Positions 2,821 through 44,800 are shown, counted from the first letter of the stretch. The stretch is 64,000 nucleotides of DNA from Patescibacteria group bacterium (GCA_019750255.1 JAIEOU010000009.1:5497-69496); one strand, 5' to 3'. Notes: generated from the letters alone by a model not told the origin. Program-made: numbers and translations.

Positions 2821-4095
2821 TTAATACTCCCGCAACGACACTTGAGCGTCGAGACGGCGAATCAGGTCCAGCACCACCGACACCACAATGAGTACCGCAG
2901 TACCACCAATCGCGAGCGCTGCCACACCGGTCGCGAGTTGCATACCGATTGGAAGAACTGCGACAAGGGCGAGGAAGGTCGCACCAACCAGGGTAAGACG
3001 AGTAATGAGCGCTCCGAGATACTCCACCGTGTGTGATCCAGGGCGAATACCGGGGATGTACGCACCGTTACGCTGAAGGTTCTTTGCGATACCGTCCGGA
3101 TCAAAGGTGACAGCGGTGTAGAAGTAGGTGAAGACGAATACTAGGAAGAAGTACGTCGCACCGTACCAAATTTGATTAGCTAAGAAAGCCTGCACTGCCT
3201 CATTGGCACCTCCGACCCAGGTGAGTGACGGAAACGCCGTGAGGATGTTGAGCACCATCTGCGGAAAGAGCAGGATGGAAAGTGCAAAGATAATTGGAAT
3301 AACGCCTGCCTGGTTAAGGCGTAGTGGCAAATATGATGAGCTGCCACCGTAGGTAGCGCCACCACGACTTTGCTTAGCGTAGGTGATTGGTACGGGACGT
3401 TCTGCTTCAGTCATAAACACTACAGCGTAAATGATACCGAGAGCAACGAGCCCAAAGCCGAGATAGAGTGGCAGCTGCGAAGGGTCATAGCTGAAGATGA
3501 GCTGACTCACAGTCGACGGGAGTGTCGCGACAATACCCGAAAAGATAATGATCGAGACACCATTTCCAATACCGTACTCGGTGATCAGTTCACCAATCCA
3601 CATGAGGAGCATCGAACCAGCGACAATGAGAACAATGTTCACGATGAAGTCGAAGGTCGAAAGTCCCGTCAGTACACCCTGACTCTGGAGGAGGGTAAGG
3701 AAACCGAAACCTTGGAGGATGGCGAGCGGAAGCGTGAGTAAGCGGCTATACTGCGTAAAGCGGGCTCGGCCAGCCTCACCCTCTTCAGTATAGAGACTCT
3801 TCAACTTCGTACTCATCACCGTGAGAAGTTGCATGATAATTGAGGCCGTAATAAACGGACCAACACCAAGCATTACAATCGAAAGGTTTGAAAGTCCACC
3901 GCCAGAGAAGATATTGAGGAGCCCCAGGAATTGATTATTGTCGAAGAATTGCTGGAGCACAGTCTGATCAACTCCAGGAATTGGAATGGTTGCAAGCGCA
4001 CGGAATACCACGAGGGCAGCCAATACGAAGAGAATACGGTTACGAAGAGCTGGTTCGGTAACGATGAGTTTGAGCTTGTGTACGAATGTATTCAT
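2821..4095 (-). CDS. secY: preprotein translocase subunit SecY
   Basis: 424-aa polytopic membrane protein with typical SecY sequence, downstream of rplO in the spc operon. Confidence 0.95.
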   Translation of the reverse strand: MNTFVHKLKLIVTEPALRNRILFVLAALVVFRALATIPIPGVDQTVLQQFFDNNQFLGLLNIFSGGGLSNLSIVMLGVGPFITASIIMQLLTVMSTKLKSLYTEEGEAGRARFTQYSRLLTLPLAILQGFGFLTLLQSQGVLTGLSTFDFIVNIVLIVAGSMLLMWIGELITEYGIGNGVSIIIFSGIVATLPSTVSQLIFSYDPSQLPLYLGFGLVALGIIYAVVFMTEAERPVPITYAKQSRGGATYGGSSSYLPLRLNQAGVIPIIFALSILLFPQMVLNILTAFPSLTWVGGANEAVQAFLANQIWYGATYFFLVFVFTYFYTAVTFDPDGIAKNLQRNGAYIPGIRPGSHTVEYLGALITRLTLVGATFLALVAVLPIGMQLATGVAALAIGGTAVLIVVSVVLDLIRRLDAQVSLREY

Positions 4096-4114
4096 AGACT
4101 AGGGACTATGCCGT

Positions 4115-4564
4115 CTATTTTACACTACCACCTGCCGCTTCAATCTTGGCCTTAGCTGCCGCCGACACCTCGCACCCCTCAACCACAAAGGCTTTGGTAA
4201 GCTCGCCAGTAGCGAGAATTTTCACCTTTGGGTTCTTCTTGCGGATCTGGCTAATCACGTTCGCTGCCACGAGGGACGCTGAAGTAATCACCATACCCTT
4301 TTCAAAGGTAGCCTCGATCACACCGAGGTTTACTACCGTTGGCTTTACCTTCTCGTTGTTAACCGTATCGGCACGGTTCTTGCCGTGACCACGGAGTTTT
4401 GGATACTTCTTGATGATATCGCGCATTTCTGGACGAGTACTGTTACCAGCACGCGCAGTCTGACCCTTATGGCCACGACCCGACATCTTGCCGCGCTTAC
4501 CACCACGACCGATGCGCTTCTCTGTCTTCTGCGGGGTTGCCCGCTTAAGTTCGTGTAGCTGCAT
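4115..4564 (-). CDS. rplO: 50S ribosomal protein L15
   Basis: MQLHELKRATPQKTEKRIGRGGKRGKMSGRGHKGQ: Gly/Arg-rich L15 N-terminus in the expected spc-operon position. Confidence 0.9.
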   Translation of the reverse strand: MQLHELKRATPQKTEKRIGRGGKRGKMSGRGHKGQTARAGNSTRPEMRDIIKKYPKLRGHGKNRADTVNNEKVKPTVVNLGVIEATFEKGMVITSASLVAANVISQIRKKNPKVKILATGELTKAFVVEGCEVSAAAKAKIEAAGGSVK

Positions 4565-4568
4565 ATAA

Positions 4569-5261
4569 TTACTTCTTTAAGAGTTTAAGCGCTTCGACGG
4601 CGGCGCGAGCATTGTTGAGCTTGTTCTTTGAACGAGAGAAAATCTTAGCGGTAACGTCCTTTACACCACCAAGTTCAAGTACGGTACGAACTGACGAACC
4701 GGCCACGAGTCCACGACCCGGCGCTGGCATAATCATCACTTCACTCGAGGCATACTTGGTATGCACGTCGTGTGGAATGTGACTGTCCTTATTCATCGGA
4801 ATCTGAATCATGTGCTTTTTAGCGTCACGCATCGCCTTGTCGATAGCGAGCTGGGTGTCACCGGCCTTGCCGATACCAACACCAACCTTGCCATTCTTGT
4901 CGCCAAGCACCATCGCTACTGAGAAACTGAACCGACGACCACCAGCCATAACACGGGTTACGCGACGGATACTGATGATCTTCTGGTCAAACTCAGGACG
5001 TGCGCGTTCGGGGCGAGCGGTGCGGCGCTGACGGCGCTCTCCGCCACCAGCTCCACCACGTCGGCCACCACCGGCTCCCGCGGTGCGGTTACCTGGACGG
5101 CGATCACGGAAACCTCGTCCTCCCTCGTCCGTAGCAGGAGCGCCTACAGTAACGTCGGCTCCCGCAGCGGGTGCATCGGTAGAAGGTGTCGCTTCCGACA
5201 CTTCTGGCTCTGGTACCACTGGGGTATCAGTTATAGCTTCCTGCTGCTTATCTTCACTCAT
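4569..5261 (-). CDS. rpsE: 30S ribosomal protein S5 with long low-complexity N-terminal extension
   Basis: Core RFSFSVAMVLGDKNGKVGVGIGKA is the S5 signature. About 110 aa of Ala/Gly/Arg-rich N-terminal tail. No L30 gene between S5 and L15, which is typical of CPR. Confidence 0.9.
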   Translation of the reverse strand: MSEDKQQEAITDTPVVPEPEVSEATPSTDAPAAGADVTVGAPATDEGGRGFRDRRPGNRTAGAGGGRRGGAGGGERRQRRTARPERARPEFDQKIISIRRVTRVMAGGRRFSFSVAMVLGDKNGKVGVGIGKAGDTQLAIDKAMRDAKKHMIQIPMNKDSHIPHDVHTKYASSEVMIMPAPGRGLVAGSSVRTVLELGGVKDVTAKIFSRSKNKLNNARAAVEALKLLKK

Positions 5262-5282
5262 ATAATGAATCTATATAATCTA

Positions 5283-5633
5283 TTAGAACTCTAGTCCGCC
5301 AGCTCTTGCCGAGTCAGCAAGTGCTGCCACGATACCCTGGTAACGGAAACCACCACGGTCAAACACCACCTTTGTGATGCCAGCCGCCTTGGCCTTTTTT
5401 GCTACTTCAGTACCAACCACGACCGCACGCTCTACTGGTGTACCCTTCTTGTCGGTACGTGAGTCAACCGCGAGTAATGTCTTTCCTACTGTGTCATCAA
5501 TCACCTGCGCGTAGACGTAGCGGTTACTACGGAATACTGCGAGACGTGGACGCTCTGGCGTACCAATCACGCGAGCACGAATACGGTTGTGACGGACCAC
5601 ACGCTTCTCGTTTTTGTATTGTGTCTTGTCCAT
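5283..5633 (-). CDS. rplR: 50S ribosomal protein L18
   Basis: 116 aa; [18 protein letters not shown] and C-terminal DRGGFRYQG...AGGLEF are L18 hallmarks. Confidence 0.9.
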
Positions 5634-5636
5634 ATA

Positions 5637-6170
5637 CTATGCCGCCTTCTTACCTTGCTTGCGGATAATGAATTCACCTCGGTATCGAATACCCTTGCCC
5701 TTGTATGGTTCTGGCTTACGTACCTTACGGACATTAGCAGCGAACTGGCCAAGCTGATCCTTGTCGTTACCGGTGAGGGTAATAACACTCTTTTCCACGA
5801 GCGCACCGATACCTTCTGGGATATCAAGTGGTACGGGGTGCGAGAAACCAACTGAAAGCACGAGCTGCTTGCCCTTAACTTCAGCCCGGTACCCGACACC
5901 TTCAAGCTCGAGGATACGAGTGAAACCTTCGGTTACACCAGTCGACATGTTGATGAGGTGCGCAGCGTAGGTTCCCCACAGCTTTGCGCCCAACATCGAA
6001 CCGGCCTGTGGTGTAAACGTTACTTCACTGTCTCCAACAGCCACCGTCACTTCCTTACGTACTGGACGTGAGAGCGTGCCCTTTGGTCCGGTCACGGTGA
6101 GTACCCCACTTTCAAACTTTACCGTTACTCCCTGGGGGATGGGGAACGCTTTTTTTCCTAGACGACTCAT
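5637..6170 (-). CDS. rplF: 50S ribosomal protein L6
   Basis: Two L6 repeats, ending ...GKGIRYRGEFIIRK. Start trimmed to MSRLGKK to remove the overlap with rpsH. Confidence 0.9.
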   Translation of the reverse strand: MSRLGKKAFPIPQGVTVKFESGVLTVTGPKGTLSRPVRKEVTVAVGDSEVTFTPQAGSMLGAKLWGTYAAHLINMSTGVTEGFTRILELEGVGYRAEVKGKQLVLSVGFSHPVPLDIPEGIGALVEKSVITLTGNDKDQLGQFAANVRKVRKPEPYKGKGIRYRGEFIIRKQGKKAA

Positions 6171-6172
6171 AC

Positions 6173-6565
6173 TTACCAAATGATGAAGAGCTCCTCACCA
6201 CCGACCTGCTTTTCTTTAGCTTCCTCATTGGTGAGGATGCCAAGCGGGGTCGAAAGGATGAGATGTCCTTTACCAAACTTAACTTTGTGAATATTGGCGA
6301 CCTTGGTGTAGAGGCGACGACCAGGCTTGCTGATGCGCTTTACACCATTAATACGATGCGCGCCGCCGTTGTAGACGAGGGCAATCGAGAGCGTCTTTCC
6401 GACCTTCTTTCCCTGCTCCTTTACTTCACCGACATATCCAGCAGCCGAGAGCTTTAGAGCTACTGCCTGCTTGAGCTTACTGTACGGGAGTTCAACCTGC
6501 TTCTTTCCGACCATACCAGCATTCTTAAGCTGAATGATGAGGTCGCCGATAGCGTCGCTTACCAT
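6173..6565 (-). CDS. rpsH: 30S ribosomal protein S8
   Basis: 130 aa; [16 protein letters not shown]... with an S8-type C-terminus. Confidence 0.9.
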
Positions 6566-6744
6566 GATGACTTCTTAATGCCTGGTATATGTCCTTCGTG
6601 AGCAAGCTCGCGGAAGCAGATGCGGCAGATATCAAAATCGCGCATATACCCTCGCTTACGTGCACACAACTTGCAGCGTCGTACGACGCGGCAAGCAAAC
6701 TTCGGCGTACGCTGTGAGCGTACGATGATTGATGTTCGTGCCAC
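6559..6744 (-). CDS. rpsN: 30S ribosomal protein S14, zinc-binding type Z
   Basis: 61 aa; GTG start; C..C....C..C zinc ribbon ([10 protein letters not shown]...CRICFRE). Confidence 0.85.
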
Positions 6745-6868
6745 TGTATTTAGTTTTAGGGGTGGAGCCGTATCATGGAGAATCCATGACGTGCGCCGTA
6801 ATAATTCCGCATCAGAAACGGTGTTTCTAAGCGTACGGGTGGGTACCTTTTTAAGGAGAAATAAGAAG

Positions 6869-6950
6869 CACGTAGTGCGACTATATTTTCCTTATGCAAT
6901 CGCCTAAGCAGATTCGACCTTTAAGGGGAGAATCTGGTTGCAGCGACTTG
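6869..6950 (+). repeat. structured repeat element, copy A
   Basis: acgtagtgcgacTATATTTTccttaTGCAAtcgcctaa, then hairpin GCAGATTCGACCtttaaggggaGAATCTG, then gTTGCAgcgacttg. Inner and outer stems; 5' flank shared with copy C. Confidence 0.6.
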
Positions 6951-7029
6951 TGAGAGGCAGAGACCCCGACCGCGTAGGCGCAATACTACTAGAATAAGGT
7001 TATTTGTCAAGGATAAATACAGAGGCCGT

Positions 7030-7105
7030 AGGCCGACAATATTTTCCTTGTGCAATCGCCTAACTGTTTTCGACCCCAGAAGGAGAAAACAGTTGCGGCG
7101 ACTTG
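7030..7105 (+). repeat. structured repeat element, copy B (tandem to A)
   Basis: Same architecture as copy A, but the inner stem is CTGTTTTC...GAAAACAG. Every stem position differs from A while pairing is preserved (covariation). Loop cores TTCGACC and GGAGAA are conserved. Confidence 0.6.
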
Positions 7106-7453
7106 CCTGGGATATAAAAATAAGGAGGCCACCATTGCTTTCATCCGTCCTTGCGAGCCTCAGCGAAGCAATCCAAACAATAATCCTAACCCAAAGGCCA
7201 GGCCTTTGTAGCCCGAACCTAGGAAACCCTACTACGGAGGCCAGGTCTCATAGTAGGAACACGAGGCTATAATCCGAGAAATTCTTTCCCAGCACACATA
7301 AAACCCTAGTCTGTTCAATACTTTTCAAAGCGCCAGGAGTTCTCATTGGCGTGAGACGTAAGTACGTTTATACGAAACGCCTCTAAGAGCCCTAGTCCAG
7401 GCTAGCAATGACAGATATACTTTCTATAACGTTACTATCTAAATAAAAATTCT

Positions 7454-8107
7454 ATGGGTTATAAAGTCAAATTTACTGTACTTGCTACACTACTCCTATT
7501 TGCTGTAAACATAAGCCACGCAAGTAGTCATTCAGAAAATTTCTCGTTTGAAGTTAGCAGTAAAAAGGTCATGTCTGGATCACCAGTACTGCTCCAATGG
7601 GTCGCCCCAGAAGGTTCAATCTGTAATCTTAATGGTACAACGATTGAAAATAGGTACGTTGTTCGTCAAGACTATTATTTGACTGAGAACCCTATAGTGG
7701 ATACGCGATACACCCTTACGTGTAGCAACGGCTTGATTACAAGCAAAATTGTACAGAAAGTGAACGTGGTGCCCGAAAGGAAAAAATCACCCACTGTTAC
7801 CACATCCATCACAGACACAGTGATTTCATATGGTCCAGGAGGTAGGAATAAATCTATTACCGCGAATCTCAACTGGACTTCAACGAATGTAGAATCCTGC
7901 ACACTTAACCAATACTTTAATAACTTTAGGACGGTAAATTTTCTGGAAGGGAGCTCCACACTAGACACTCAAGGTGCACTGGGTATGAGAGTAAGCAATG
8001 GTTCTTTTAGTTCACCAACTGAACGAACGTATCTCATAACTTGCCAAAATAAAAATGGAGTTTCAGCAGGTTCTGAGGTGGTATTTAACTCATCAATTGA
8101 TCTCTAA
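7454..8107 (+). CDS. secreted tandem-repeat protein (signal peptide, two ~90-aa beta-rich repeats)
   Basis: N-terminal signal peptide (LATLLLFAVNISHASS). Internal duplication L.W....C.LN...TY.LTC.N..G appears twice. Markedly AT-rich compared with the surrounding DNA. Confidence 0.6.
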   Translation: MGYKVKFTVLATLLLFAVNISHASSHSENFSFEVSSKKVMSGSPVLLQWVAPEGSICNLNGTTIENRYVVRQDYYLTENPIVDTRYTLTCSNGLITSKIVQKVNVVPERKKSPTVTTSITDTVISYGPGGRNKSITANLNWTSTNVESCTLNQYFNNFRTVNFLEGSSTLDTQGALGMRVSNGSFSSPTERTYLITCQNKNGVSAGSEVVFNSSIDL

Positions 8108-8139
8108 TTCCCTACTCCAAAGAATGGGACTTCGTAGTC

Positions 8140-8409
8140 CTACCTGTAGACATCCTTTCTGTGTTTGATTGTTAATACAATCAGTACCACAATGCCTCCC
8201 TTACCATCGTAGGTAAAAACTACTCGATAGTCACCAATTCGGTATCGGTACTTCCCCGATAACCTCCCTTGCAGAGCTTTGGCCCGAGCCAGCGGTTCAG
8301 CTTGAGAAGCATTATCAGCTATCTTAAGTACAATTCTCTTAGCAATTAAGGGACTCAGCTTTTTTAACTGCTGAAGAGCATCATCTGAGTAGATGACCGT
8401 AGCGCTCAT
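8140..8409 (-). CDS. RelE/ParE-family type II toxin
   Basis: 89 aa; YRYRIGDYRVVFTYDG....IVVLIVLTIKHRKDVY matches the RelE/ParE signature. Confidence 0.8.
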   Translation of the reverse strand: MSATVIYSDDALQQLKKLSPLIAKRIVLKIADNASQAEPLARAKALQGRLSGKYRYRIGDYRVVFTYDGKGGIVVLIVLTIKHRKDVYR

Positions 8410-8414
8410 TGAGA

Positions 8415-8663
8415 TTATGTAATACCAAGTTTTTTAAACACTTCTTCTTGGGTGTGGAAATTACCCCGAACAACATTGGCTTCAGCTTTTACCACATCAG
8501 CAACAAAGGTATCGAGGTACTCATCGTCAACAAACGCTTTAATTTCAAACAACGGCTTGTTTCGATTCATAACAATATAACGAACATCACTCTTTCGGGC
8601 ACGCTTAGCATAATCAGAAATATTCTGACGAAAATCTTTTACTCCGATAAATTTAGTATTCAT
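8415..8663 (-). CDS. Phd/YefM-family antitoxin
   Basis: 82 aa, directly upstream of and abutting the toxin gene. N-terminus MNTKFIGVKDFRQNISDYAKRAR...YIVMNRNKPLFEI is Phd/YefM-like. Confidence 0.7.
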   Translation of the reverse strand: MNTKFIGVKDFRQNISDYAKRARKSDVRYIVMNRNKPLFEIKAFVDDEYLDTFVADVVKAEANVVRGNFHTQEEVFKKLGIT

Positions 8664-8841
8664 ATATTTAAAGTGTACACTTAAGTGTACACTTTTGTCA
8701 AGTATTTATTGAACAGTAGTTTCGAACCGAATCCAGCCCCTTCTCGTGTCTACACAGACTGAGTGCACTTCACCCGCTCCTGCAGCAATTCTTTCAGGCA
8801 GTAACAATCATTGACATCATTAGTCACAGTTGCGTTAATTA

Positions 8842-10137
8842 ATGTATATGCACTTCGGTCTACGGACGTCTGAAGTTACTCCCCAGCGAGATATTCGCTC
8901 TGAGCCTGATTCACCGTCCTCACTTAAGACACTACTCTCTGCGCCTGGCCCACTCTCCATCATTACACTTGTAGAAACCTGTCTTCGAGAGGCACACCAC
9001 CAACACGCTTCCGACATTCATATCGAACCAAACGAACACGCCATCCGTGTTCGTTTTCGTATTGACGGCATGCTCTGCGACATCGTCACCCTTCCACGCA
9101 CTATACATTCGGAAATAATTTCTCGTATTAAAGTACTCTCCCATCTGCGGACCGACGAGCACCAAGCGGCACAGGACGGCCGCTTTCGCGCAACTTTTGC
9201 CACCACTGCGGTTGATATACGCGTTTCGATTGCCCCGACCCATCATGGGGAAAATGCCGTACTGAGACTACTTACTGAACACGCCACCCCGCGCACACTT
9301 AGCACACTCGGACTACATGAGAACGATCAAGCAAAAATTGAGCGGGCGGTCGCCTGCCAGAGCGGCATGATACTGGCAACCGGGCCAACCGGATCGGGAA
9401 AGACCTCAACGTTATATACCCTTCTCAAGTTACTCAATCACTCAGAAATCTCTATCGTCACAATTGAAGACCCTATTGAGTACGCAGTAGCTGGGGTTAC
9501 CCAAATGCAGATCAACCCGAGGTCTAACCTCACTTTCGCCAATGGGCTGCGTACCGTCTTGCGCCAGGACCCCAACGTTATTATGGTTGGTGAAATTCGT
9601 GATGCCGAAACCGCTAACATCGCTATTAATACGGCTCTCACCGGACACCTCCTCCTCTCCACCCTCCATACGAATGACGCTGCCACCACACTACCTCGAC
9701 TGCTCGATATGGGGGTAGATGCCTATCTGGTAGCGTCAACAATAAACATTGCCATCGGCCAACGCCTTGTGAGAAAAATCTGCCTACACTGCCGCACCAA
9801 GCACACGCCCACTGAAGCCGAGACACGCCACCTTAAATTGTCCTCACACACAACAACTGAGAAGTACGAAAACGTACCAAACAAATTTTTTCACGGCGCT
9901 GGCTGCCCTGCCTGCAACCACTCGGGCTATGCCGGGCGAATTGGCATATACGAAGTCCTCGTCGTGTCACCTACCATTCGCGAAGCAATCTTACAACGAG
10001 CTTCAGCTGCGACCATACATACCATCGCTCAAAGTGAAGGCCTTACCTCAATGTTTGAAGATGGCTTACGAAAAGCCGCGAAGGGTGACACAACGATAGC
10101 GGAAGTCTTGCGCGTGGTTGGGACACCAATTTCCTAA
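8842..10137 (+). CDS. pilB: type IV pilus/T2SS assembly ATPase, GspE/PilB family, short form lacking the N1 domain
   Basis: Walker A GPTGSGKTST, Asp box VGEIRD, His box ALTGHLLLSTLHTN and tetracysteine motif CLHC...CPAC. True start codon uncertain. Confidence 0.85.
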   Translation: MYMHFGLRTSEVTPQRDIRSEPDSPSSLKTLLSAPGPLSIITLVETCLREAHHQHASDIHIEPNEHAIRVRFRIDGMLCDIVTLPRTIHSEIISRIKVLSHLRTDEHQAAQDGRFRATFATTAVDIRVSIAPTHHGENAVLRLLTEHATPRTLSTLGLHENDQAKIERAVACQSGMILATGPTGSGKTSTLYTLLKLLNHSEISIVTIEDPIEYAVAGVTQMQINPRSNLTFANGLRTVLRQDPNVIMVGEIRDAETANIAINTALTGHLLLSTLHTNDAATTLPRLLDMGVDAYLVASTINIAIGQRLVRKICLHCRTKHTPTEAETRHLKLSSHTTTEKYENVPNKFFHGAGCPACNHSGYAGRIGIYEVLVVSPTIREAILQRASAATIHTIAQSEGLTSMFEDGLRKAAKGDTTIAEVLRVVGTPIS

Positions 10138-10145
10138 AGCCCTAC

Positions 10146-11327: not shown

Positions 11328-11341
11328 TTCCCCAAGCAATC

Positions 11342-11794: not shown

Positions 11795-11797
11795 CGT

Positions 11798-13357: not shown

Positions 13358-13362
13358 TACGT

Positions 13363-13899: not shown

Positions 13900-13901
13900 T
13901 T

Positions 13902-14303: not shown

Positions 14304-14410
14304 CTATAAACAGAACTATTAATCCAAAAAATTTTAAGCACCCCCTACCGTATATAATTTAGATAACGGAAAGATGCTTCACGCAACTATACTTATCTAT
14401 AATTTATTGT

Positions 14411-14899: not shown

Positions 14900-14967
14900 T
14901 AGGACCAACCGCGTAACTCGCCCCACGGCTGAGACGCCGGTCTCTACATCCGCATCGTCAGCTAACA

Positions 14968-14998: not shown

Positions 14999-15011
14999 AA
15001 CCAGAAGACAG

Positions 15012-34857: not shown

Positions 34858-34993
34858 ACTTATATATGTATTAAATAAAATAATGTGTTTGTAATTCCTT
34901 CTTTTTCACCTCGCTGACGCGCTTAGAGAAAAGAAAAAGCCTTGCGGCCGAAACGCGAGTACTATACGACACTGGGGCAAAAACGGCAACCAG

Positions 34994-35677: not shown

Positions 35678-35685
35678 AAGAAATT

Positions 35686-37116: not shown

Positions 37117-37159
37117 GAAACGCCTACGCGTCCACGACTGTGGTACGCTACGAAGGACT

Positions 37160-37882
37160 ATGCGCTTGGCTTCCGTATTTAAAACCAGTCGCTTTCACAT
37201 CCCCGCCACCTGGGTAGCGGCGGCTTTGTGGTGTATAGCCATCTTTTGTCTGTATTATTACTACGGTACTCACGGCCTTTCCATGAAAGACATGCTGTAT
37301 GAACTATTTGTCTTTCTTTCTACAGACCCACGTGCACCCCTCTTATATATCATCGCCTATACGTTGCAACCGTTTGCGTTTTTACCAAGCACCGTCTTTA
37401 CCGTCCTTGCCGGTAGTATTTTTGGGTTTTGGCCAGCCCTCGTGTATACGCTCATCGGGGCCAACCTTTCTGCCAGCACCGCCTATGGCGTCGGGCGCGT
37501 CTTGGCCCGACCGGCGCCCGGACTCATGAACCAGCTTGCCCGCTGGATTGGACCACTGCAGCGTGCACCCTTTGAAACCATTCTTTTTATGCGCCTCGCC
37601 TATTTTCCCTTTGATGTAGTAAACTTTGTATCGGGAATTTTAAAACTACGTTACCTGCCGTTCGTTATTGCTACCGCCGTTGGGTCCGTCCCTGGCATCG
37701 CTACTTTGACCGCGCTGGGCACAGCGGTAAGTCTCAAAAGCTTACTTGCAGAAGGTCTCTCTTTTTCGATGATTGATATCCGCCTGGTCGGTGTTTCAGT
37801 GGTCTTATTCGTCGTTTCAATTGTTATCGCTGAAGGGGTTCGTCGGGTCCAAAAGCGCTCTCTTAAAGCCGGCCAACAGTAG
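37160..37882 (+). CDS. DedA/TVP38 family membrane protein
   Basis: Start trimmed to MRLASVF after the zwf start. VLAGSIFGFWPALVYTLIGANLSASTAYGVGR is the DedA core. Confidence 0.7.
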   Translation: MRLASVFKTSRFHIPATWVAAALWCIAIFCLYYYYGTHGLSMKDMLYELFVFLSTDPRAPLLYIIAYTLQPFAFLPSTVFTVLAGSIFGFWPALVYTLIGANLSASTAYGVGRVLARPAPGLMNQLARWIGPLQRAPFETILFMRLAYFPFDVVNFVSGILKLRYLPFVIATAVGSVPGIATLTALGTAVSLKSLLAEGLSFSMIDIRLVGVSVVLFVVSIVIAEGVRRVQKRSLKAGQQ

Positions 37883-37918
37883 CCTTTCGGCCACCCGAGA
37901 CTGTGGTATACTTAATAT

Positions 37919-38638
37919 ATGTTTGCATTTACCGGAGGCCGCATCTTGGTTGCTAGTATCATCGCTGCGTTTATCGGTCTCAGCAGTTACGTCATGCAGG
38001 TAGAGGTACCTGCGACCAGCATGGCAATTTCTCCAAGCAGCGCAATGAGTCTCGCTGGTGCAGAAATAGTTGTGCAGGTGGTCGTCGAATCATCCATACC
38101 CGTTAACGCCTTTGCGGGAGAACTGCAATTCGATAGCACAAAGCTTGAAGTTGCCCGTATTGATTACAACAATTCCATCGCCGACCTATGGGCCGAAGAA
38201 CCGTGGTATAAAAACAGTGACGGAACTGTCGGCTTTGCCGGTGGTAGCACAAGAGCCGGTGGCTTCACAGGGAGCGGTACTCTCATTACTATCACCTTCA
38301 AAAGCAAAGTGGTAGGCGTGAGCGCTATCGAAATTACCCGTGCTCAAATTCTTAAACACGATGGGCTTGGCTCCGACGCAACGATTCCTCCCCCTATCGA
38401 CGCTCTCTTTACCGTCACTGCCGAGGCAACACCAATCGTACATATGGATCAGCGCACGACCCAGGTGGTGGTAACGAGTACAGCCGTAAACATCGACCTC
38501 TCCGGCGACGGACAGCAATCGCTGGCTGACGTCAGTGTCTTCCTGCAACACTTCGTGGCCGGCAACCTCGCCGGCGACCTAAACGAAGACGGTCGGGTAT
38601 CACTCTCAGATATGAGTATTCTACTTGAATCGTTTTAA
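37919..38638 (+). CDS. cohesin-domain protein with C-terminal dockerin (two Ca-binding repeats)
   Basis: N-terminal TM/signal, cohesin-like beta-sandwich, then DLSGDGQQSLADVSVFLQHF and DLNEDGRVSLSDMSILLESF (D.N.DG.V...D...L). Confidence 0.65.
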   Translation: MFAFTGGRILVASIIAAFIGLSSYVMQVEVPATSMAISPSSAMSLAGAEIVVQVVVESSIPVNAFAGELQFDSTKLEVARIDYNNSIADLWAEEPWYKNSDGTVGFAGGSTRAGGFTGSGTLITITFKSKVVGVSAIEITRAQILKHDGLGSDATIPPPIDALFTVTAEATPIVHMDQRTTQVVVTSTAVNIDLSGDGQQSLADVSVFLQHFVAGNLAGDLNEDGRVSLSDMSILLESF

Positions 38639-38666
38639 CTGACACATACACTAATGTTAAAGCGTA

Positions 38667-38712
38667 TCAAAACCCCTCCTACTACCAGGCATGGTAGTAG
38701 GAGGGGTTTTCG
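38667..38712. terminator. bidirectional intrinsic terminator
   Basis: aaAACCCCTCCTACTACCaggcatGGTAGTAGGAGGGGTTtt. Confidence 0.85.
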
Positions 38713-38737
38713 GACACTGACTGTATTAGATAGTCGA

Positions 38738-40225
38738 TTATTTTTTAGTTGAAAGCTTGGCAAGGTCGAGGGTATCGTCAATACGAATCTGCGAAACAAA
38801 ATCAGGGACGTGTGACACCAAAATCATTGCGCCCTTATATTCATTCAGCGCTGCGGCAATCACCGGCAGGTGCCTAAAGTTTACGTGGTTTGTAGGTTCG
38901 TCGAGAATGAGGAGGCCCGGTTTTTCCATCGTAAGCTTACAAAACGCGAGGAGCGCCTTTTGTCCTTCCGAGAGATTCCCCACCTTAGTCTTCATTACGT
39001 TTCCAAACAAGAGGAAGCCGGCCGCGATTGAGCGCATTTCTTCTTCAAGCTTCTTTTGCATCGAGGCCATCAGGGTTTCAAATACAGTCTTATCAAAATC
39101 AAGGTTCGAAAAGTCCTGGCGATAGTAGCCAATCTTTACCCCGGGTGTTACATGCTCACCCTTAGCATGTCCTGAGGCCAGCTTTTCTAAGAGAGTTGTC
39201 TTTCCAATACCGTTTGGTCCGACAATCTGGAGATGCATCGCACGCTTGAGAACTAACTGCACTTCCGCTTCTTTGGCTTCGTGGTTTTTGATGACGGTCA
39301 CTGAAGTTAGCTTCACTACCTCAAGCGGAATATCCTGGTGTGGTTCAATAGTGAATGGTCGGATAGTTTTATCTTCTCGTCGCACATCCACTTTATTCTC
39401 TTCGGCTTCTTCAATCTCATCACGCATGCGCTTGGCTACCAGACGCATCTTGCCTCCTTTGTTCGAGAAGTAGTTAACCTTATCCTTATTTGCCTGAATT
39501 TCTTTCTCAAGCTGGGCATTTTGGCGCTGCTCTTTCTCTACCTGCGCGGCGATGTCGCGAACCACCGTATGGTAGTTCCCGTTGTACTGCTCGACCTGGC
39601 GACGCTGAGTGTTGAGGTATAAAACGCCGTGAGTAAAGGCATTAAGGAAGTCAGCATCGTGCGAAATAACGAGAACGGTTTTTTTGTACTCTTTTAGAAA
39701 AGTAGTGAGGTGTTCAATACCACCTACATCGAGGTTGTTAGTTGGCTCGTCTAGCAGCAAAATGTCGGGGTCTTGAATGAGGGCCTGCGCAAGGAGGAGG
39801 CGCGCTTGCTGTCCACCAGAAAAACTGCCGATGATGCGCTCTTTAAACGTCTCGCGCTGCTTTTCGGTCGGGGTCAGGTTCACCACCTCAAGTACCGCTT
39901 CAATCCGCGGGTCAATGTCATAAACTTTTTCAGAGAAGCACTTGAGGAAGAATTCCCGGACAGTGAGGGTCATCTCTTCCCGCGGAATAATCTGGCGCGC
40001 GGTCGCGATGGTGGTGCGCGGCTCGAGGTTAACCATGCCGGATTCGGGTTTGAGAGTGCCCGTGATAAGACCAAAGATAGTACTCTTCCCCGCGCCATTT
40101 TGCCCCATGAGGGTGAGTTTCGCACCCCGGCGCACCACAAAATCGGCCTCTTTAAGAATAGGCCGCGTGGTGTCGTATTCAAACGACACCCCTTTAAATA
40201 CAATGATACCGTCGCCGCGTGACAT
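38738..40225 (-). CDS. ABC-F family ATPase (two tandem ABC domains, no TMD)
   Basis: Two Walker A motifs (GQNGAGKST; GPNGIGKTT), two LSGGQ-like signatures and a charged inter-domain linker. Confidence 0.85.
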   Translation of the reverse strand: MSRGDGIIVFKGVSFEYDTTRPILKEADFVVRRGAKLTLMGQNGAGKSTIFGLITGTLKPESGMVNLEPRTTIATARQIIPREEMTLTVREFFLKCFSEKVYDIDPRIEAVLEVVNLTPTEKQRETFKERIIGSFSGGQQARLLLAQALIQDPDILLLDEPTNNLDVGGIEHLTTFLKEYKKTVLVISHDADFLNAFTHGVLYLNTQRRQVEQYNGNYHTVVRDIAAQVEKEQRQNAQLEKEIQANKDKVNYFSNKGGKMRLVAKRMRDEIEEAEENKVDVRREDKTIRPFTIEPHQDIPLEVVKLTSVTVIKNHEAKEAEVQLVLKRAMHLQIVGPNGIGKTTLLEKLASGHAKGEHVTPGVKIGYYRQDFSNLDFDKTVFETLMASMQKKLEEEMRSIAAGFLLFGNVMKTKVGNLSEGQKALLAFCKLTMEKPGLLILDEPTNHVNFRHLPVIAAALNEYKGAMILVSHVPDFVSQIRIDDTLDLAKLSTKK

Positions 40226-40308
40226 AGCTTTAGAGCACTACCTTACACTATTCTAAGCTTATTTTCCATAAGGTAGAGACGTGCTCATGGCTCTTTACAT
40301 TCCACACT

Positions 40309-40653
40309 CTACGGACGGTTATCAGCTTCGGGTTTTTCCGGTCCCCACTGCCAGTGCGGTGACTCTCCCTTCACGTAACAGGTAAGCAGCAACAGGAGTG
40401 TGAGGATGGCAAACGGTAGTGCAATGGCACGTGGCGCCGCTTCGTTTGGCACCACGGTGTACTCTACCCACAAAGCCATAACTAACACCGCCACCAGATA
40501 GCCACCAAGTACCGCCCACCCTTGCCACCTGGCTGGCGTCCAGCCCCACCCGTATAGTTTCCGCTTAAACCAATAGCCCTCTGGGTTATCTTTAAGATAG
40601 GCTCGGTAGGATGAAAATATACTCATGTACCTATTGTACGCCCCTACCCGCAC
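40309..40653 (-). CDS. small Trp-rich membrane protein, hypothetical
   Basis: YWFKRKLYGWGWTPARWQGW followed by a TM helix. Confidence 0.4.
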   Translation of the reverse strand: MRVGAYNRYMSIFSSYRAYLKDNPEGYWFKRKLYGWGWTPARWQGWAVLGGYLVAVLVMALWVEYTVVPNEAAPRAIALPFAILTLLLLLTCYVKGESPHWQWGPEKPEADNRP

Positions 40654-40659
40654 CCCGCA

Positions 40660-40694
40660 ACAAAAAGACGACCGTGGTGGTCGCCTTTTATTTA
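40660..40694 (-). terminator. intrinsic terminator after the Gmad2 gene
   Basis: On the minus strand: GGCGACCaccacGGTCGTCTTTTTGTTG. Confidence 0.6.
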
Positions 40695-40981
40695 GGTGAT
40701 TTTTCGATTCAGACTAGCAATTCTCCTTTCGCAGGTCGCTGCCACTCGTTTTTTCGCTATGATGCTCAAAACGAGTGAAGCGACTGCATAAGGGAAATTT
40801 AGTCGGGCTAGAGCCCTCCTAATTTACCCTTATCTTTTTTTGGTTTCTTCTTCTCTTTCCGCATATCGGTGCCTTTGGCCATATAATGATGTTAGTTAAT
40901 TAACGTCTGATCTTAAAATTAATTGCGCATGGTGAGTTACTTATACTTTTCGGATACTCTCAGTATAGAACGGACAATGAC

Positions 40982-41566
40982 TTATGGTGCAAACTGGACG
41001 GGGATTTCTAGGGCGTCATCGTGCTCAGGCAAACCAGAGGGATTATCTTTTTTAAGAATAAGAGTCCCTCGCTTCATGAACTCGGGATCACCTTCCTTAT
41101 ACGGATTCACAAAATCAAGCTCGGCTACAAAAGGTACAAAGTCCTCAGTCATCCAATCTCCCTGCGCGGCTGCGACAGTTTGTGAAATAATGAGACCGTC
41201 CCAGTTGGTGAGAAAAATTGGAAAGGACGCTTCAAAGTACCACGGTCCGCGAGCTTGACCACTGATGGTAAACGGATTAATCACTACCGCCAGAGGAGCG
41301 GGTCCAGTCAGCTTAATTTTGTCGCTCTTTGCGTCAATCTGCGCCGCGATGTCGCCTGGTACTTCTGGTGCAGGTGGGCACGCAAACTCGCAGTTTGGTC
41401 CCGACCGCCCAACCATGCTTCCATCAGCACACACCATCGCGTCCATCGTACACGCTATTATTTCTTCCTCCTTTGGGGACAGAAAGGTACTAGCAATTCC
41501 AGCAATAAGGGCCAGCGCAATTAGTCCGAACAGTGCGTATTTCATACATGCCATTGTACCAAACAT
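40982..41566 (-). CDS. secreted Gmad2 immunoglobulin-like domain protein
   Basis: Signal/TM, then ISGQARGPWYFEASFPIFLTNWDGLII, typical of Gmad2. Confidence 0.6.
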   Translation of the reverse strand: MFGTMACMKYALFGLIALALIAGIASTFLSPKEEEIIACTMDAMVCADGSMVGRSGPNCEFACPPAPEVPGDIAAQIDAKSDKIKLTGPAPLAVVINPFTISGQARGPWYFEASFPIFLTNWDGLIISQTVAAAQGDWMTEDFVPFVAELDFVNPYKEGDPEFMKRGTLILKKDNPSGLPEHDDALEIPVQFAP

Positions 41567-41572
41567 CTCTCG

Positions 41573-42622
41573 CTACCCTAAGTCGCGTACTTTTTTAAGT
41601 GCCACTACGTACATGCTAACCGCCCACCCGAGAGGCGTATGATCATTCCATTTGTCCGTATGAGAATAATAAAGCTCGGGCACCATCCCGTCGGGGGTAA
41701 CCGTTGCTTTGGCCCGCCTCAGGTAGTAAAAGGCTTTATCCTTTTCACCGCGCTCAGCGTAAATTATGGCTAGCCATGAGAGACCAAAACACCACTCGGC
41801 CTCTTCGCTCCAGCCATCACGATTGTTATTGAAGTAACGGTCGCACTTATAACGGAGAACACCCTTATCCCGGACAAGGTGGTACTCAACGTTGCGGAGA
41901 ATTTCTTTGGTTTGTTCTTCGGTCGTAATCTGGAAGGGGTAGATGAGTGACATGAGGGCCAAGTCACAAAACTTGCTCTCCGATTCGCGCGGAAGCAATG
42001 CAGTGAGCGCGCGCTCACCTTCAACCAGCGCGTAATCTGGAACGGTCAGCCACGGAATCTCAGCCGCTTTTTTAAGCGCAGCGAGTACTGAGCCAATCGA
42101 AGAAGCATGCACTTCCATCGCCTCTTCCCAAATACCATTGTCAGGATCTTGCCAATACTCTAGACGTACCAGGTAGTCAATAATGGTCTGCACCATCGCG
42201 CGCTCATCATCAGTTTCAACGACACTCCAGCCCATCTGTTCGAGAGTAACAAGCAGGTTAAGCACCTCCCCGACAGCATCATTCTGACTATTACCCCACT
42301 CCTCCCAATACTCCTCAAACGTCTCTGGGTGAAACCTAGCGTGGATGTATTGCCAGGCCGCATGAGGCTTATGCTCGACTGCCCAATTGATTTTGTCCTG
42401 GTGTTTTACAAAGACCGTAAGGAGAGCCTTGGCTGCTGAGCGGGTTACCTCTTTATCGCCCGTCTCAAGGAAGGCCAGGGTGGTGAAATAGATATCACGG
42501 AGCCACGCTTTTCCGTACCACGTCTCCATTGGAGCGGCGGTAAAGACACCATTGGGGCGACGGAGGGTAAGAATGACGGAGAGGTGGTGTTTTATTTCGG
42601 CATCAAAATCAAATGAGGACAT
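41573..42622 (-). CDS. glycoside hydrolase family 15-like (alpha/alpha)6-barrel protein
   Basis: YGKAWLRDIYFT (W.RD motif), YWEEWG and abundant aromatic residues. Only 349 aa. Confidence 0.4.
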   Translation of the reverse strand: MSSFDFDAEIKHHLSVILTLRRPNGVFTAAPMETWYGKAWLRDIYFTTLAFLETGDKEVTRSAAKALLTVFVKHQDKINWAVEHKPHAAWQYIHARFHPETFEEYWEEWGNSQNDAVGEVLNLLVTLEQMGWSVVETDDERAMVQTIIDYLVRLEYWQDPDNGIWEEAMEVHASSIGSVLAALKKAAEIPWLTVPDYALVEGERALTALLPRESESKFCDLALMSLIYPFQITTEEQTKEILRNVEYHLVRDKGVLRYKCDRYFNNNRDGWSEEAEWCFGLSWLAIIYAERGEKDKAFYYLRRAKATVTPDGMVPELYYSHTDKWNDHTPLGWAVSMYVVALKKVRDLG

Positions 42623-42661
42623 GGGTGAAAGAACAAAGGAACAAATTGATAAGTGGGCAGT

Positions 42662-43021
42662 CTAGGCAGCGACTCTACTTTGCTCGACACTATTGTCGTT
42701 CGCAATTAGGTCAGGGATGGGTACATTTTTGAGGCGACTTACAAGACTCTTATACGTTTTTTGGGCGTCAGCCATGGCCTCATACATCTTACGGGTACAG
42801 GCCACTTCTTCGATTCTATCTAAGTCAGACATTTCGAGCACACCGCCATTATTGTTGGCCTTTTTCTCGTATGACTTAAGGACGGTAGCAGTTGCCTCGA
42901 GCACTTGAGTGACGGTGGCTTCTTTCATCGAAAGACCGAGCTCCGCTTCTATGAGTTCAACACCAGACTTCTGCACTAACTGCTCTTGAGCTCTCCCGTT
43001 TTCAAAATTCATGCGCGACAC
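42662..43021 (-). CDS. hypothetical protein
   Basis: 119-aa helical ORF; no motif recognised. Confidence 0.35.
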   Translation of the reverse strand: MSRMNFENGRAQEQLVQKSGVELIEAELGLSMKEATVTQVLEATATVLKSYEKKANNNGGVLEMSDLDRIEEVACTRKMYEAMADAQKTYKSLVSRLKNVPIPDLIANDNSVEQSRVAA

Positions 43022-43115
43022 ATAACTAGGATAATGGTGTCATTTTAGCATGGCCAGTATTCATCCACGAAATACGTCCTGCCCGAAGAAGGCCTATCTC
43101 TGGTACTATGACTAT

Positions 43116-43466
43116 ATGAAAACATATACTGGCAGTTGTCACTGCGGAGCGGTGGCCTATACGGTAGAAGGTGAGTTTACGGAAGGCATGCGCTGCAACT
43201 GTTCCCACTGTAGGCGAAAGGGGTTTTTGCTCGCATTTGCTCCTGACTCAGCCTTCACCCTTTTGCGCGGAGCTGACGCACAGACGATCTACCACTTCAA
43301 CAAACATCACATCGATCACACCTTTTGCAAAACCTGCGGCGTCCAGTCATATGGGCACGGCCAAGACGGCAAGGGTAACTACATGACCATGATTAACCTA
43401 AACTGCCTCGAAGACTTTGACCTCTCTACCGTCAAAGTCAATGAGTTCGACGGCGCGAGTTTGTAA
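43116..43466 (+). CDS. GFA-family (CENP-V/glutathione-dependent formaldehyde-activating enzyme-like) zinc protein
   Basis: GSCHCGAV...CNCSHC...C..CG Cys pattern; start trimmed to MKTYTGS. Confidence 0.7.
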   Translation: MKTYTGSCHCGAVAYTVEGEFTEGMRCNCSHCRRKGFLLAFAPDSAFTLLRGADAQTIYHFNKHHIDHTFCKTCGVQSYGHGQDGKGNYMTMINLNCLEDFDLSTVKVNEFDGASL

Positions 43467-43498
43467 GCTTTTTGATACATACACCAGGGGTTCAACTG

Positions 43499-43625
43499 TA
43501 AAGAAAAAGCTAAATCGAGATGAGTCACGCGAAGCACAAGAAAAAAGACCCGACTGGGACAAATGTCCAGGGAGGGTCTTTTTTCGTAGTGCGACAAAGT
43601 GAATCGCTCGATTTAGCTTTTTCTT
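43499..43625. repeat. 127-nt nested palindrome/terminator overlapping the rpsG 3' end
   Basis: Outer arms aaagaaaaagctaaatcgag ... ctcgatttagctttttctt, enclosing the hairpin aaaaaAGACCC...GGGTCTttttt. Confidence 0.6.
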
Positions 43626-44097
43626 ACCAGGCGAAGTGAGCAAAGGCACGGTTAGCCTCAGCCATCTTGTGCGTATCCTCTCGCTTCTTCACAGCGTTTC
43701 CTTCTTCCTTCGCTGCGAGGATGAGCTCTTGCGCGAGGGCCTTATGCATTGGCACTCCCTTTTGATTTCGGGCTGAACCGATAATCCAACGGAGGGCAAG
43801 GGCGGTGCGGCGCTCTGGGCGCACCTCACGCGGTACCTGGTAGTTTGCTCCACCAACGCGACGTGAACGAACTTCCATGAGTGGACCGGCGTTTCGCATC
43901 GCTGTGTTGAACACTTCAAGTGGCTCGACAGCCTCCTTGTTCGCCTTCTTAATTTCTTCAAAGGCGCCGTATACAATCTTGCGTGCGGTTTCCTTCTGAC
44001 CACGGAGCATGATGTAGTTGATCAAACGTTCTACTTCCACCGATGAGTGCACAACGTCTGGCTGCACAACTGGGCGCTTCTTAATTGGTCGTCGCAT
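43624..44097 (-). CDS. rpsG: 30S ribosomal protein S7
   Basis: [14 protein letters not shown]...[13 protein letters not shown]. Start trimmed to the internal ATG at 44097. Confidence 0.9.
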
Positions 44098-44365
44098 AAT
44101 AATTTTGTTTAACTGTGTAATTAAATACGTACGCGACTCTCTATTGTTTCGACAAACTAGAATGGGCTCAAAGGAGCCGTGCGCTTGGGCGCTCATTCTT
44201 CGCATAATGCCCTAGGGATGTACCCTGGCACTCATGATCTGTAGCGAATATAGACTATTTTGATATCGCGTGTCCGCAAGCACTCACTAGCCCATGTGGC
44301 CACTGAACACTTCAGGAAACACAATTGTGTTTCTGGTAGCCCGCCCTGCCGGGTGGCGACACTTC

Positions 44366-44800
44366 CTATTTCTTTTTAGCTGCGGTAGCTCCAGCCTTTG
44401 GCTTCTTAGCGCCGTAGCGTGAGCGGCCCATGCGGCGTTCTGCAACACCAGTCGCGTCGTACTTTCCACGAACGATTGTGTACTGAACACCAATGTCCTT
44501 TACGCGACCACCGCGAACAAGTACCACTGAGTGCTCCTGGAGGTTGTGTTTAATACCTGGAATGTATGCAGTAATTTCCTGACCATTTGAAAGGCGCACA
44601 CGAGCAATCTTACGGATAGCTGAGTTTGGCTTACGTGGAGTCTTCGTAGTAACACGCGTACACACACCACGCTTAAAGGGTGAATTGTACTTGTTTGGGT
44701 GGTTTTCAATTTTGTTGAAACCAGTATGGAGCGCTCCCGTCTTACTCTTACGAATAGGGTCGCGGCGCTTGTTCTTTGTGAGCTGTTGAATGGTGGCCAT
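44366..44800 (-). CDS. rpsL: 30S ribosomal protein S12
   Basis: [28 protein letters not shown]...[10 protein letters not shown]. Confidence 0.95.

Follow-up and report, generated by a model that had tools for sequence, protein, structure and literature searches.

The str-S10-spc supercluster of ribosomal protein genes is a textbook case of extreme synteny and forms the backbone of the 16-protein marker set with which bacteria of the Candidate Phyla Radiation (CPR) are placed. In Escherichia coli, the operator for protein S8 overlaps the start of rplE, the third gene of the spc operon, and control spreads from there by coupling. In cyanobacteria, plastids, and archaea, tuf and rpsJ are linked to each other and stand apart from the block led by rplC, usually at distant loci. 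The way in which the cluster is altered has been described for Gammaproteobacteria and Bacilli (Brandis 2021, PMC8046335): alterations usually start with a few genes inserted between operons (e.g., tusDCB between rpoBC and str, bfd-bfr or ilv-leu between str and S10, and nrdHEF), such insertions are often lost again, and full disconnection may come after. The ribosomal protein leaders of the E. coli type have been reported as narrowly distributed (Fu et al. 2013, PMC3616713, and Rfam). Here, we analyzed a stretch of 64,000 nucleotides from a Patescibacteria group bacterium, an ultra-small member of the CPR class Paceibacteria (GCA_019750255.1, JAIEOU010000009.1:5497-69496; the whole stretch is referred to as the window), in which an original prediction had noted a supercluster fragmented into terminator-bounded units by accessory DNA. 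A comparison with related species leads us to propose, with a probability of roughly 0.75, that a lineage of Paceibacteria has re-partitioned the supercluster into independent, autoregulated units, and that the spacers between them are permissive sites with variable genes, the window being a heavily loaded example.

All cluster genes of the window lie on the minus strand and in the canonical sequence, i.e., rpsL-rpsG, fusA, tuf-rpsJ, rplC-rplD-rplW-rplB, rpsS to rplE, rpsN to secY, and adk, the blocks being separated, in this order, by 8.8, 0.7, 6.8, 1.7, 8.9, and 1.9 kb. Every gene could be identified, using NCBIfam for the window and Pfam for other assemblies of the same DNA, and the order is that of the canonical supercluster, whereas its contiguity is lost through these six spacers of 0.7 to 8.9 kb. 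The first unit consists of rpsL (S12; 44366-44800; TIGR00981, 181 bits) and rpsG (S7; 43624-44205; TIGR01029) and is followed by fusA alone (EF-G; 32686-34857; TIGR00484, 1023 bits). The third (30327-31961) combines tuf (30735-31961, the start being set at 31925 by another gene call) with rpsJ (30327-30698), while the fourth (20937-23480) runs from rplC (22875-23480) through rplD and rplW to rplB (20937-21800). The fifth, rpsS-rplV-rpsC-rplP-(rpmC)-rpsQ-rplN-rplX-rplE (15646-19269), extends from rpsS (18892-19269) to rplE (15646-16182) and was recognized by NCBIfam as well as by Pfam (in contigs L001 and L084 from other assemblies). The sixth, rpsN-rpsH-rplF-rplR-rpsE-rplO-secY (2821-6744; Pfam in contig L086), starts with rpsN (6559-6744) and ends with secY (2821-4095). 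The gene set of this last unit lacks L30, which is a trait of CPR, and several cluster proteins are extended at the N terminus, a usual feature of CPR bacteria. The boundaries of the five spacers upstream of secY are 43623/34858, 32685/31962, 30326/23481, 20936/19270, and 15645/6745; the coordinates and sizes originally predicted were correct, as was the collinear gene order. The same holds for adk (341-913; Pfam ADK and NCBIfam), which was expected beyond secY and lies past the sixth break. Four of the five insertions that had been announced do contain genes, namely those at rpsG/fusA, rpsJ/rplC, rplB/rpsS, and rplE/rpsN, whereas the 0.7 kb between fusA and tuf is a spacer without an ordinary gene. 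The genes past secY had been described as divergent; they are instead three plus-strand genes convergent with secY.

The DNA surrounding rplB (±10 kb) was taken from 80 GTDB species representatives of Paceibacteria that share 55-78% L2 identity with the window. The nearest of them are metagenome-assembled genomes of Paceibacteria/Parcubacteria, with at most 78% L2 identity. Together with the window and L001, another assembly of the window organism, these made up the locus set for gap counts, onto which 25 cluster genes were mapped and in which 23 junctions were scored. Gaps above 400 nt were found at rpsG/fusA in 6 of 12 loci, at fusA/tuf in 16 of 25, at rpsJ/rplC in 28 of 55, at rplB/rpsS in 52 of 62, and at rplE/rpsN in 24 of 38. 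There was one further case, at rplW/rplB (one locus), and the 17 other junctions showed none. The latter include the classical E. coli boundaries tuf/rpsJ and rpsQ/rplN (the S10/spc boundary), which are 36 nt long and overlapping, respectively, in the window and have median gaps of 100 and 11 nt in the relatives; judged by sequence alone, neither is a boundary here. Wherever both flanking genes could be recovered in a relative of at least 65% L2 identity, the rplB/rpsS and rpsJ/rplC junctions were occupied. Furthermore, rpsS was not found within 10 kb of rplB in five loci (L030, L042, L060, L062, and L076), and in L076 the rpsN-secY block was relocated to 1.3 kb upstream of tuf, which indicates that the blocks move as units, the units of break being also those of rearrangement. 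In many loci, no fusA was present in the 6 to 7 kb covered upstream of tuf. To judge from these sequences, the rplB/rpsS and rplE/rpsN boundaries are class-wide in Paceibacteria, while the rpsJ/rplC boundary, with its leader (see below), apparently arose in a subclade that includes the window.

The borders of the units coincide with predicted signals for transcription. As had been proposed, the units of the window are bounded by terminators. A bidirectional hairpin after rpsG (43538-43587; ΔG −23 kcal/mol, with an A-run on one side and a U-run on the other) is shared with a convergent GFA gene, and an 18-bp hairpin with a U-tail (32412-32452; ΔG −37 kcal/mol) lies about 230 nt after fusA. Further hairpins follow rpsJ (30241-30290, minus strand), directly rplB (20884-20919, 16 bp), rplE (15381-15408, preceded by a copy, at 15430-15560, of a dispersed repeat described below), and secY (2646-2677, again bidirectional). 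Several of the genes within the spacers also end in intrinsic terminator hairpins. Across the whole locus set, 101 of 125 occupied junctions had a terminator-like hairpin no more than 150 nt from the upstream gene, compared with 32 of 248 coding-region controls. As a side observation, the 450 nt or so of noncoding DNA after rpsJ hold four successive terminator-like hairpins (29836-30290, minus strand), for which the matches to small RNAs in Rfam were weak and far below threshold.

The original prediction had also assumed that each downstream fragment has a promoter of its own. Promoter-like elements were indeed found on the minus strand before each of them: TTGCCG-17-TATAGT for fusA (34961-34989), TTGCAA-16-TACTAT for tuf (32104-32131), TTGCAT-16-TATAGT for the rplC unit (23629-23656), TTGACA-17-TAGTAT for the rpsS unit (19622-19650), and TTGACA-16-TAGTAT for the rpsN unit (6983-7010), three of these units having in addition a structured leader. 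The element of the rplC unit aligns with TTGC(A/T)N and GTATA(C/G)T of the relatives. A strict E. coli consensus (at least 10 of 12 matches) was discarded as a search pattern, as it under-detects in this clade, whose −10 elements read TAGTAT, TACTAT, or TATA(C/G)T. With the pattern TTGNNN-N16-18-TANNAT, searched within 300 nt upstream of the downstream gene, 89 of 166 junctions were positive, compared with 33 of 744 coding-region controls; the share was 23 of 25 at fusA/tuf, 36 of 60 at rplB/rpsS, and 21 of 35 at rplE/rpsN. Promoter-like elements also occur where the spacer is empty. The empty rplB/rpsS spacers of relatives (134-273 nt) contain TTGAC(T/A)-N17-TA(G/C)(T/C)AT and, in some, terminators, and some of the empty rplE/rpsN spacers (73-390 nt) contain TTGAC(T/A)-N17-TA(G/C/A)TAT (6 of 11 in the 100-400 nt class). 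At rpsJ/rplC, the empty spacers of at most 100 nt (18 loci, 8-99 nt) are too short to hold a promoter, and the pattern was seen in 0 of 9 spacers of 100-400 nt.

Three units start with a conserved structured leader on the minus strand. That of rplC (23481-23623), aligned across 28 species, comprises, behind the promoter, AAAGACCUAYGU, a variable hairpin P1, the element GACCAAUGGGCA, and a long hairpin that resembles a terminator and is followed by a U-run. The consensus after P1 is (G/A)ACCAAUGGGCA, and the putative attenuator hairpin occupies 23515-23554 in the window; seven pairs of its stem show compensatory change in the alignment. Among loci that share at least 65% L2 identity, 31 of 32 have the core of this leader, compared with 0 of 37 less similar ones; this is the subclade in which the rpsJ/rplC junction is open as well. 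A pattern scan of metagenomes returned 80 matches, of which 48 were attributed to chance and only the 32 with rplC downstream were used; these further copies all lie 68-339 nt upstream of rplC and, where rpsJ was present, its end and the motif downstream of it were 575-2741 nt apart. The leader of rpsS (about 200 nt, 19424-19620) is built of a long helix, an invariant loop GGCCGUUACC, and a terminator-like hairpin; of the 19 predicted pairs of the helix, 14 show compensatory changes. The idea that it mimics 5S rRNA, and would thereby be a site for L5, was found to be unsupported, as its core has no match in the E. coli rRNAs.

The third leader contains, 26 nt before rpsN, a hairpin, GU-CAUGG…CCAUG-AUAC (6760-6800), that is a candidate S8 operator. 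Of the 15 closest loci, 12 contain its motif, GU-CAnn…nnUG-A(U/G)AC, for which 0.007 occurrences per region would be expected, and a GUCG variant was recognized by eye in the alignment of two further loci (L026 and L027). The distance to the start of rpsN is 21-31 nt in eight of the 12 loci and 93-134 nt in the other four; rpsH, which encodes S8, is the next gene. All four pairs of the inner helix covary, and 98% of the alignment cells are paired, compared with 25-43% when the partners are slid. The flanks equal AAGUCAG (595-601) and UGAUAC (638-643) of E. coli 16S rRNA, where the positions were checked, a region that is the S8-binding core of helix 21; the hairpin thus copies G597-U598-C599-A600 and U638-G639-A640-U641-A642-C643 of that helix. 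Rfam 15 contains no relevant family for any of the three leaders, either in the window (at gathering threshold and E ≤ 1) or in the leader stretches (E ≤ 10; 200 nt in the case of rplC). With terminators, promoters, and leaders taken together, the insertion points are, at the level of prediction, transcription-unit boundaries, which is the pattern reported by Brandis (2021).

As the simplest account, we hypothesize that rpsL-rpsG (possibly with a preceding M50 peptidase gene), fusA, tuf-rpsJ, rplC-rplD-rplW-rplB, rpsS to rplE, rpsN to secY, and a unit beginning with adk would be separate transcription units, each with its own sigma-70-like promoter at the start and an intrinsic terminator at the end. 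The three structured 5′ leaders would probably serve autogenous control by a ribosomal protein of the same unit: the rpsN unit might be regulated by S8, the rplC unit by attenuation through L4 or another of its own proteins, and the rpsS unit might be subject to feedback through its leader. Because neither transcription nor translational coupling would have to cross the borders, the spacers would be permissive and would be the only sites of the cluster that could gain, lose, or swap DNA without polar damage. With time, they would fill with changing ordinary genes and lose them again. In its widest form, the proposal says that the whole class has rebuilt the regulation of its core ribosomal proteins, with cuts at the noncanonical junctions rpsJ/rplC, rplB/rpsS, and rplE/rpsN, a promoter for each unit, and new cis-regulatory RNA, namely an S8 operator shifted into the 5′ leader of rpsN, an attenuator before rplC, and the leader of about 200 nt before rpsS, the spacers being then tolerated as bays of gene flux; to this we would give even odds.

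Several points weigh against the proposed re-partition. The relaxed promoter pattern was drawn up after inspection of these same sequences; moreover, it was met in 0 of 6 cases upstream of fusA in the relatives and rarely upstream of rplC, where the −10 element reads TATA(C/G)T and so escapes the pattern. At all loci, promoters and terminators are consensus or pattern matches to sequence and not to transcripts, and it is from sequence that we infer transcription start and stop sites, attenuation, protein binding, and the neutrality of the cargo. The assignment of S8 relies on mimicry, with E. coli 16S rRNA as the reference rather than that of the organism itself, and the cores of the rplC and rpsS leaders have no match in E. 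coli 16S, 23S, or 5S rRNA. The gap edges, set by tblastn alignment, are approximate, the loci of the relatives end 10 kb from rplB on either side, so large inserts are censored and the gap counts are lower bounds, and the clade sampled is Paceibacteria only. Finally, the succession of events could equally be another one: the empty promoter-bearing spacers fit boundaries that came first and received cargo later, and just as well sites that have lost their cargo.

The DNA held in the spacers of the window is mostly made of ordinary genes. The insert between rpsG and fusA (34858-43623, 8.8 kb, both strands) has host-like GC and carries GFA (plus strand), hyp119, GH15, Gmad2, hyp114, an ABC-F ATPase, a cohesin-like gene and VTT/DedA (both plus strand), G6PD, and 6PGL, as identified by Pfam. 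In the 6.8 kb between rpsJ and rplC (23481-30326; Pfam, PHROGs, and hairpins), an RHH-like gene of 81 codons (29465-29710), hyp211, a gene (24027-28340) whose 1437-aa product carries a peptidoglycan-binding domain at its C terminus, and a small open reading frame (ORF) each have a terminator of their own. The 1.7 kb between rplB and rpsS (19270-20936; Pfam) contain DUF2238 (20187-20822, minus strand) and DUF2103 (19711-20022, plus strand), the latter antisense to the cluster and divergent from rpsS. The largest insert, between rplE and rpsN (6745-15645, 8.9 kb, both strands; Pfam and GC), contains DUF6176 (minus strand), a type IV pilus operon on the plus strand (T2SSE, T2SSF, three pilins, and two hypothetical genes), a Phd/ParE pair (8140-8663, minus strand), and a gene for a secreted 217-aa protein (plus strand). 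The sixth break (914-2820, 1911 nt) contains, on the plus strand, DUF6176, hyp175, and a cytidylate-kinase-like gene (Pfam), while the secY-adk gap of the relatives is 36-750 nt. The GC content of the cargo is 0.48-0.56, and both GC and GC3 are like those of the ribosomal protein genes; only the segment 7454-8663 and the two DUF6176 genes deviate, so that the base composition is not that expected of a mobile island. The cargo within the S10/spc part of the window amounts to 17.4 kb. The window has the largest insert observed at three junctions, and its rpsJ-secY span is 27.9 kb compared with 10.5-16.1 kb in the relatives, though both comparisons are biased by the censoring of the relatives at 10 kb.

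Among all loci, 346 cargo ORFs fell into 276 families, and 257 of these were singletons. Their orientation is mixed: 199 of the 346 ORFs are co-oriented with the cluster, the share being 69-72% at fusA/tuf and rpsJ/rplC. Pfam domains in 150 cargo representatives included those of dihydroorotate dehydrogenase, orotidine monophosphate (OMP) decarboxylase, pyruvate kinase, enolase, QueA, SAICAR synthetase, PhoH, SpoU, and others, and none of the 25 commonest families was a transposase or integrase. DUF2103 (about 105 aa) is the one cargo gene with wide conservation, being rpsS-divergent and antisense in the window and 16 related species. It encodes a small basic protein that is retained beside rpsS and might be ribosome-associated. 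At 19549-20022 there is a conflict of gene calls, the automatic call on L001 being a 124-aa ORF on the minus strand (19549-19923); the plus-strand gene of 103 codons is, nevertheless, the real one because of its Pfam match and its conservation at this junction in the window and the same 16 species.

The window is evidently metagenomic, and the inserts could in principle be mis-joins of contigs in a metagenome-assembled genome whose true cluster is contiguous. We regard the probability of this as negligible. In the Logan per-run assemblies of seven runs (DRR851307, DRR851322, DRR851323, DRR851326, DRR851327, SRR15085119, and SRR15085122; at least 99.9% identical), contigs retrieved by exact-protein look-ups, which are short and assembled run by run, cover 4861-9789, 13153-23529, 28369-32170, 34408-40777, and 41264-44051 of the window at 99.9-100% identity. 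Thus, 9 of the 10 edges of the five reported inserts are spanned: those between rpsG and GFA (L089, 41264-44051, 100% identity) and between 6PGL and fusA, the path from tuf and rpsJ into the insert before rplC (L082, 29775-32170, within the covered 28369-32170), the whole rplB-DUF2238-DUF2103-rpsS junction (L001, 17605-23094), the path from rplE over DUF6176 to the pilins (13153-17777), and that from T2SSE over ParE to rpsN-rpsH (4861-9789). The sole junction-adjoining stretch covered by no other assembly is 23530-28368, which comprises the 1437-aa gene together with its border to the rplC leader; exact-protein look-ups of rpsG, fusA, the 1437-aa protein, and a 58-aa ORF found no record, and for this reason the edge between the 1437-aa gene and rplC is not confirmed by a second assembly. 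However, the rplC leader of the window is homologous to those of the relatives, and these relatives, which come from unrelated studies, are open at the same junctions. The chimerism that the original prediction had considered can thus be set aside for all edges except this stretch.

A recent invasion of this one genome, in which mobile or horizontally acquired accessory DNA broke a continuous cluster and promoters were gained later, would explain why the cargo is almost wholly unlike that of the relatives and why the window holds the largest inserts at three junctions. The Phd/ParE module in low-GC DNA (7454-8663) and the same-orientation copies of a dispersed repeat that bracket the rplE/rpsN insert would also fit. 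We nevertheless consider it improbable. The break points, promoters, and leaders are common to 30-80 other species and hence predate the window genome, most of the cargo has host-like GC and GC3, and the repeat copies are just 68-76% identical and therefore unlikely to be fresh att sites. The cargo genes of the window that were scanned with Pfam, PHROGs, or NCBIfam (all but a few small ORFs) included no integrase, transposase, or phage gene, and a scan of the window for transfer RNA genes as island attachment sites found none. There was likewise no prophage signal, the only PHROGs matches of the unknown cargo proteins being to endolysin families at the peptidoglycan-binding domain of the 1437-aa protein. 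The exceptional, genome-specific fragmentation by accessory DNA that had been claimed is therefore not supported: the break positions are clade-wide, the rpsJ/rplC break and its leader occur in 31 of 32 genomes of the closer subclade, and the cargo consists mostly of ordinary chromosomal genes with host-like GC (G6PD, 6PGL, ABC-F, the type IV pilus operon, and DUF2103). Whether the layout is universal in the clade, a point the original prediction had left to a synteny comparison, has a divided answer, since the break positions are shared and the cargo and its size are genome-specific; likewise, the statement that this cluster is among the most syntenic loci, including in CPR, holds for gene order but not, in Paceibacteria, for contiguity. 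The spacers might, alternatively, not be neutral at all, if the cargo were selected for its location, gaining from strong ribosomal protein promoters through terminator read-through or having a ribosome-linked function. The persistence of DUF2103 beside rpsS, the predominance of co-oriented ORFs at fusA/tuf and rpsJ/rplC, a secreted Cys-rich family at three junctions in eight loci, and the position of 6PGL and G6PD directly upstream of fusA in the window, with no strong terminator between, all point that way. Yet nearly all cargo families are singletons, their overall co-orientation is slight, their functions are a housekeeping miscellany, and strong terminators separate most of the cargo from the ribosomal protein units, while DUF2103, being antisense, could not be co-transcribed with the cluster. 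Such co-location under selection is thus rather unlikely as the general explanation, and re-partition with permissive spacers remains the reading that we prefer.

The re-partitioned cluster resembles the pattern of Brandis (2021, PMC8046335) in that unrelated genes lie between units while the window and its relatives keep the cluster order, and in that disconnection may follow later, rpsS or fusA being more than 6 to 10 kb away in some relatives. It differs in the place of the breaks, which are mostly at classical operon boundaries there but here fall within operons of E. coli (str, S10, and spc); in extent, as it is near-universal in the class and affects up to six sites per genome; and in the new leaders, including a repositioned mimic of the S8 site. 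The general phenomenon follows the logic of Brandis at different boundaries; literature searches found no description of ribosomal protein leaders or of split ribosomal protein clusters in CPR. Like the S8 operator of the E. coli spc operon, the hairpin before rpsN is a small mRNA hairpin of the operon that encodes S8, with the GUCA/UGAUAC core of helix 21, just 5′ of a start codon. Unlike that operator, it is located in the 5′ leader of rpsN, in an operon cut at rplE/rpsN, matches no Rfam family, and is recognized by sequence mimicry. The E. coli S10 leader, which acts by L4-mediated, NusA-dependent attenuation, shares with the rplC leader a conserved element, a terminator-like hairpin, and a U-run before the unit that encodes L4, whereas the leader of the window stands before rplC and after rpsJ, has no match to an Rfam leader, and would attenuate to judge from the hairpin alone. 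In contrast to cyanobacteria, plastids, and archaea, the tuf-rpsJ and rplC-led blocks are here collinear with variable cargo between them, and their separation is limited to one subclade of Paceibacteria.

If the re-partition is correct, one of the largest classes of CPR keeps the order of the supercluster but not its contiguity, with fixed noncanonical cuts, which would refine what "conserved" means for str-S10-spc. Pipelines for binning or marker analysis that presume a compact ribosomal block should allow for such a split. The fixed junctions may also map the minimal blocks whose co-transcription is under selection. The three leaders are candidates for new autoregulatory RNAs of ribosomal proteins in organisms whose gene regulation is little known, and the S8 mimic before rpsN would be a testable case of an operator that re-evolved or moved after an operon was split. 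The variable, neutral-looking spacers might serve as landing pads if Paceibacteria become genetically tractable.

Some further features of the spacers deserve mention. The one between fusA and tuf (31962-32685) contains two terminators, the tuf promoter, a copy of the dispersed repeat, and an ORF of 54 codons (32154-32318, minus strand) with a strong Shine-Dalgarno sequence (AAGGAG), whose stop codon is overlapped by a terminator (32135-32170); it may encode a real small protein. The low-GC segment in the rplE/rpsN insert (7454-8663; 0.36-0.44 compared with about 0.51 elsewhere) comprises the gene for the secreted 217-aa protein and the Phd/YefM-ParE toxin-antitoxin pair (8415-8663 and 8140-8409, minus strand), and no other part of the cargo has the look of a recent acquisition. 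The two DUF6176 genes are diverged paralogs (2299-2640, plus strand, GC 0.40; 15012-15323, minus strand, GC 0.45), each being the first gene past the terminator of a ribosomal protein unit (that of secY and that of rplE, respectively). In the relatives, the secreted Cys-rich family (103-366 aa, with an N-terminal signal or transmembrane segment) has 18 members in eight loci (L008, L012-L015, L018, L027, and L031), located at rpsJ/rplC, rplB/rpsS, and fusA/tuf and co-oriented with the cluster in all cases; the window has no member.

The dispersed repeat mentioned above is structured, about 130 nt long, and present in five intergenic copies: two in tandem before rpsN (6826-6949 and 6973-7104, minus strand), one after rplE (15430-15560, minus strand), one antisense in the 3′ region of fusA (32483-32610, plus strand), and one within the rpsG/fusA insert (40733-40865, plus strand). 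Each consists of a long 5′ hairpin followed by a second hairpin domain around the conserved AAAAUAUAGUC, with compensatory changes at 18 pairs, seen among the five copies only. The copies that bracket the rplE/rpsN insert have the same orientation and are 68-76% identical; further copies elsewhere occur in both orientations. Two contigs from other runs (L088 and L213) terminate within a copy. The repeat has no Rfam match, and nhmmer gave no significant match over the loci of the 80 relatives; it could be a REP/MITE-like element or a family of small RNAs. The window also contains a second type IV pilus cluster (55205-62017, minus strand), paralogous to the operon between rplE and rpsN and composed of T2SSE with MshEN, T2SSF, a 579-aa CarboxypepD_reg protein, a pilin, and a 477-aa protein, in an ordinary neighborhood (NusA, TIM, PGK, RecJ, ComEC, and SOD). 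Upstream of rpsL, there is no rpoB or rpoC, and a gene for an M50-family peptidase (Pfam M50; 44875-45573) is found 74 nt away in the same orientation. It is accompanied by a promoter-like site (45521-45549) and a strong terminator (45838-45877); to judge from this arrangement, rpsL-rpsG may be co-transcribed with the peptidase gene.

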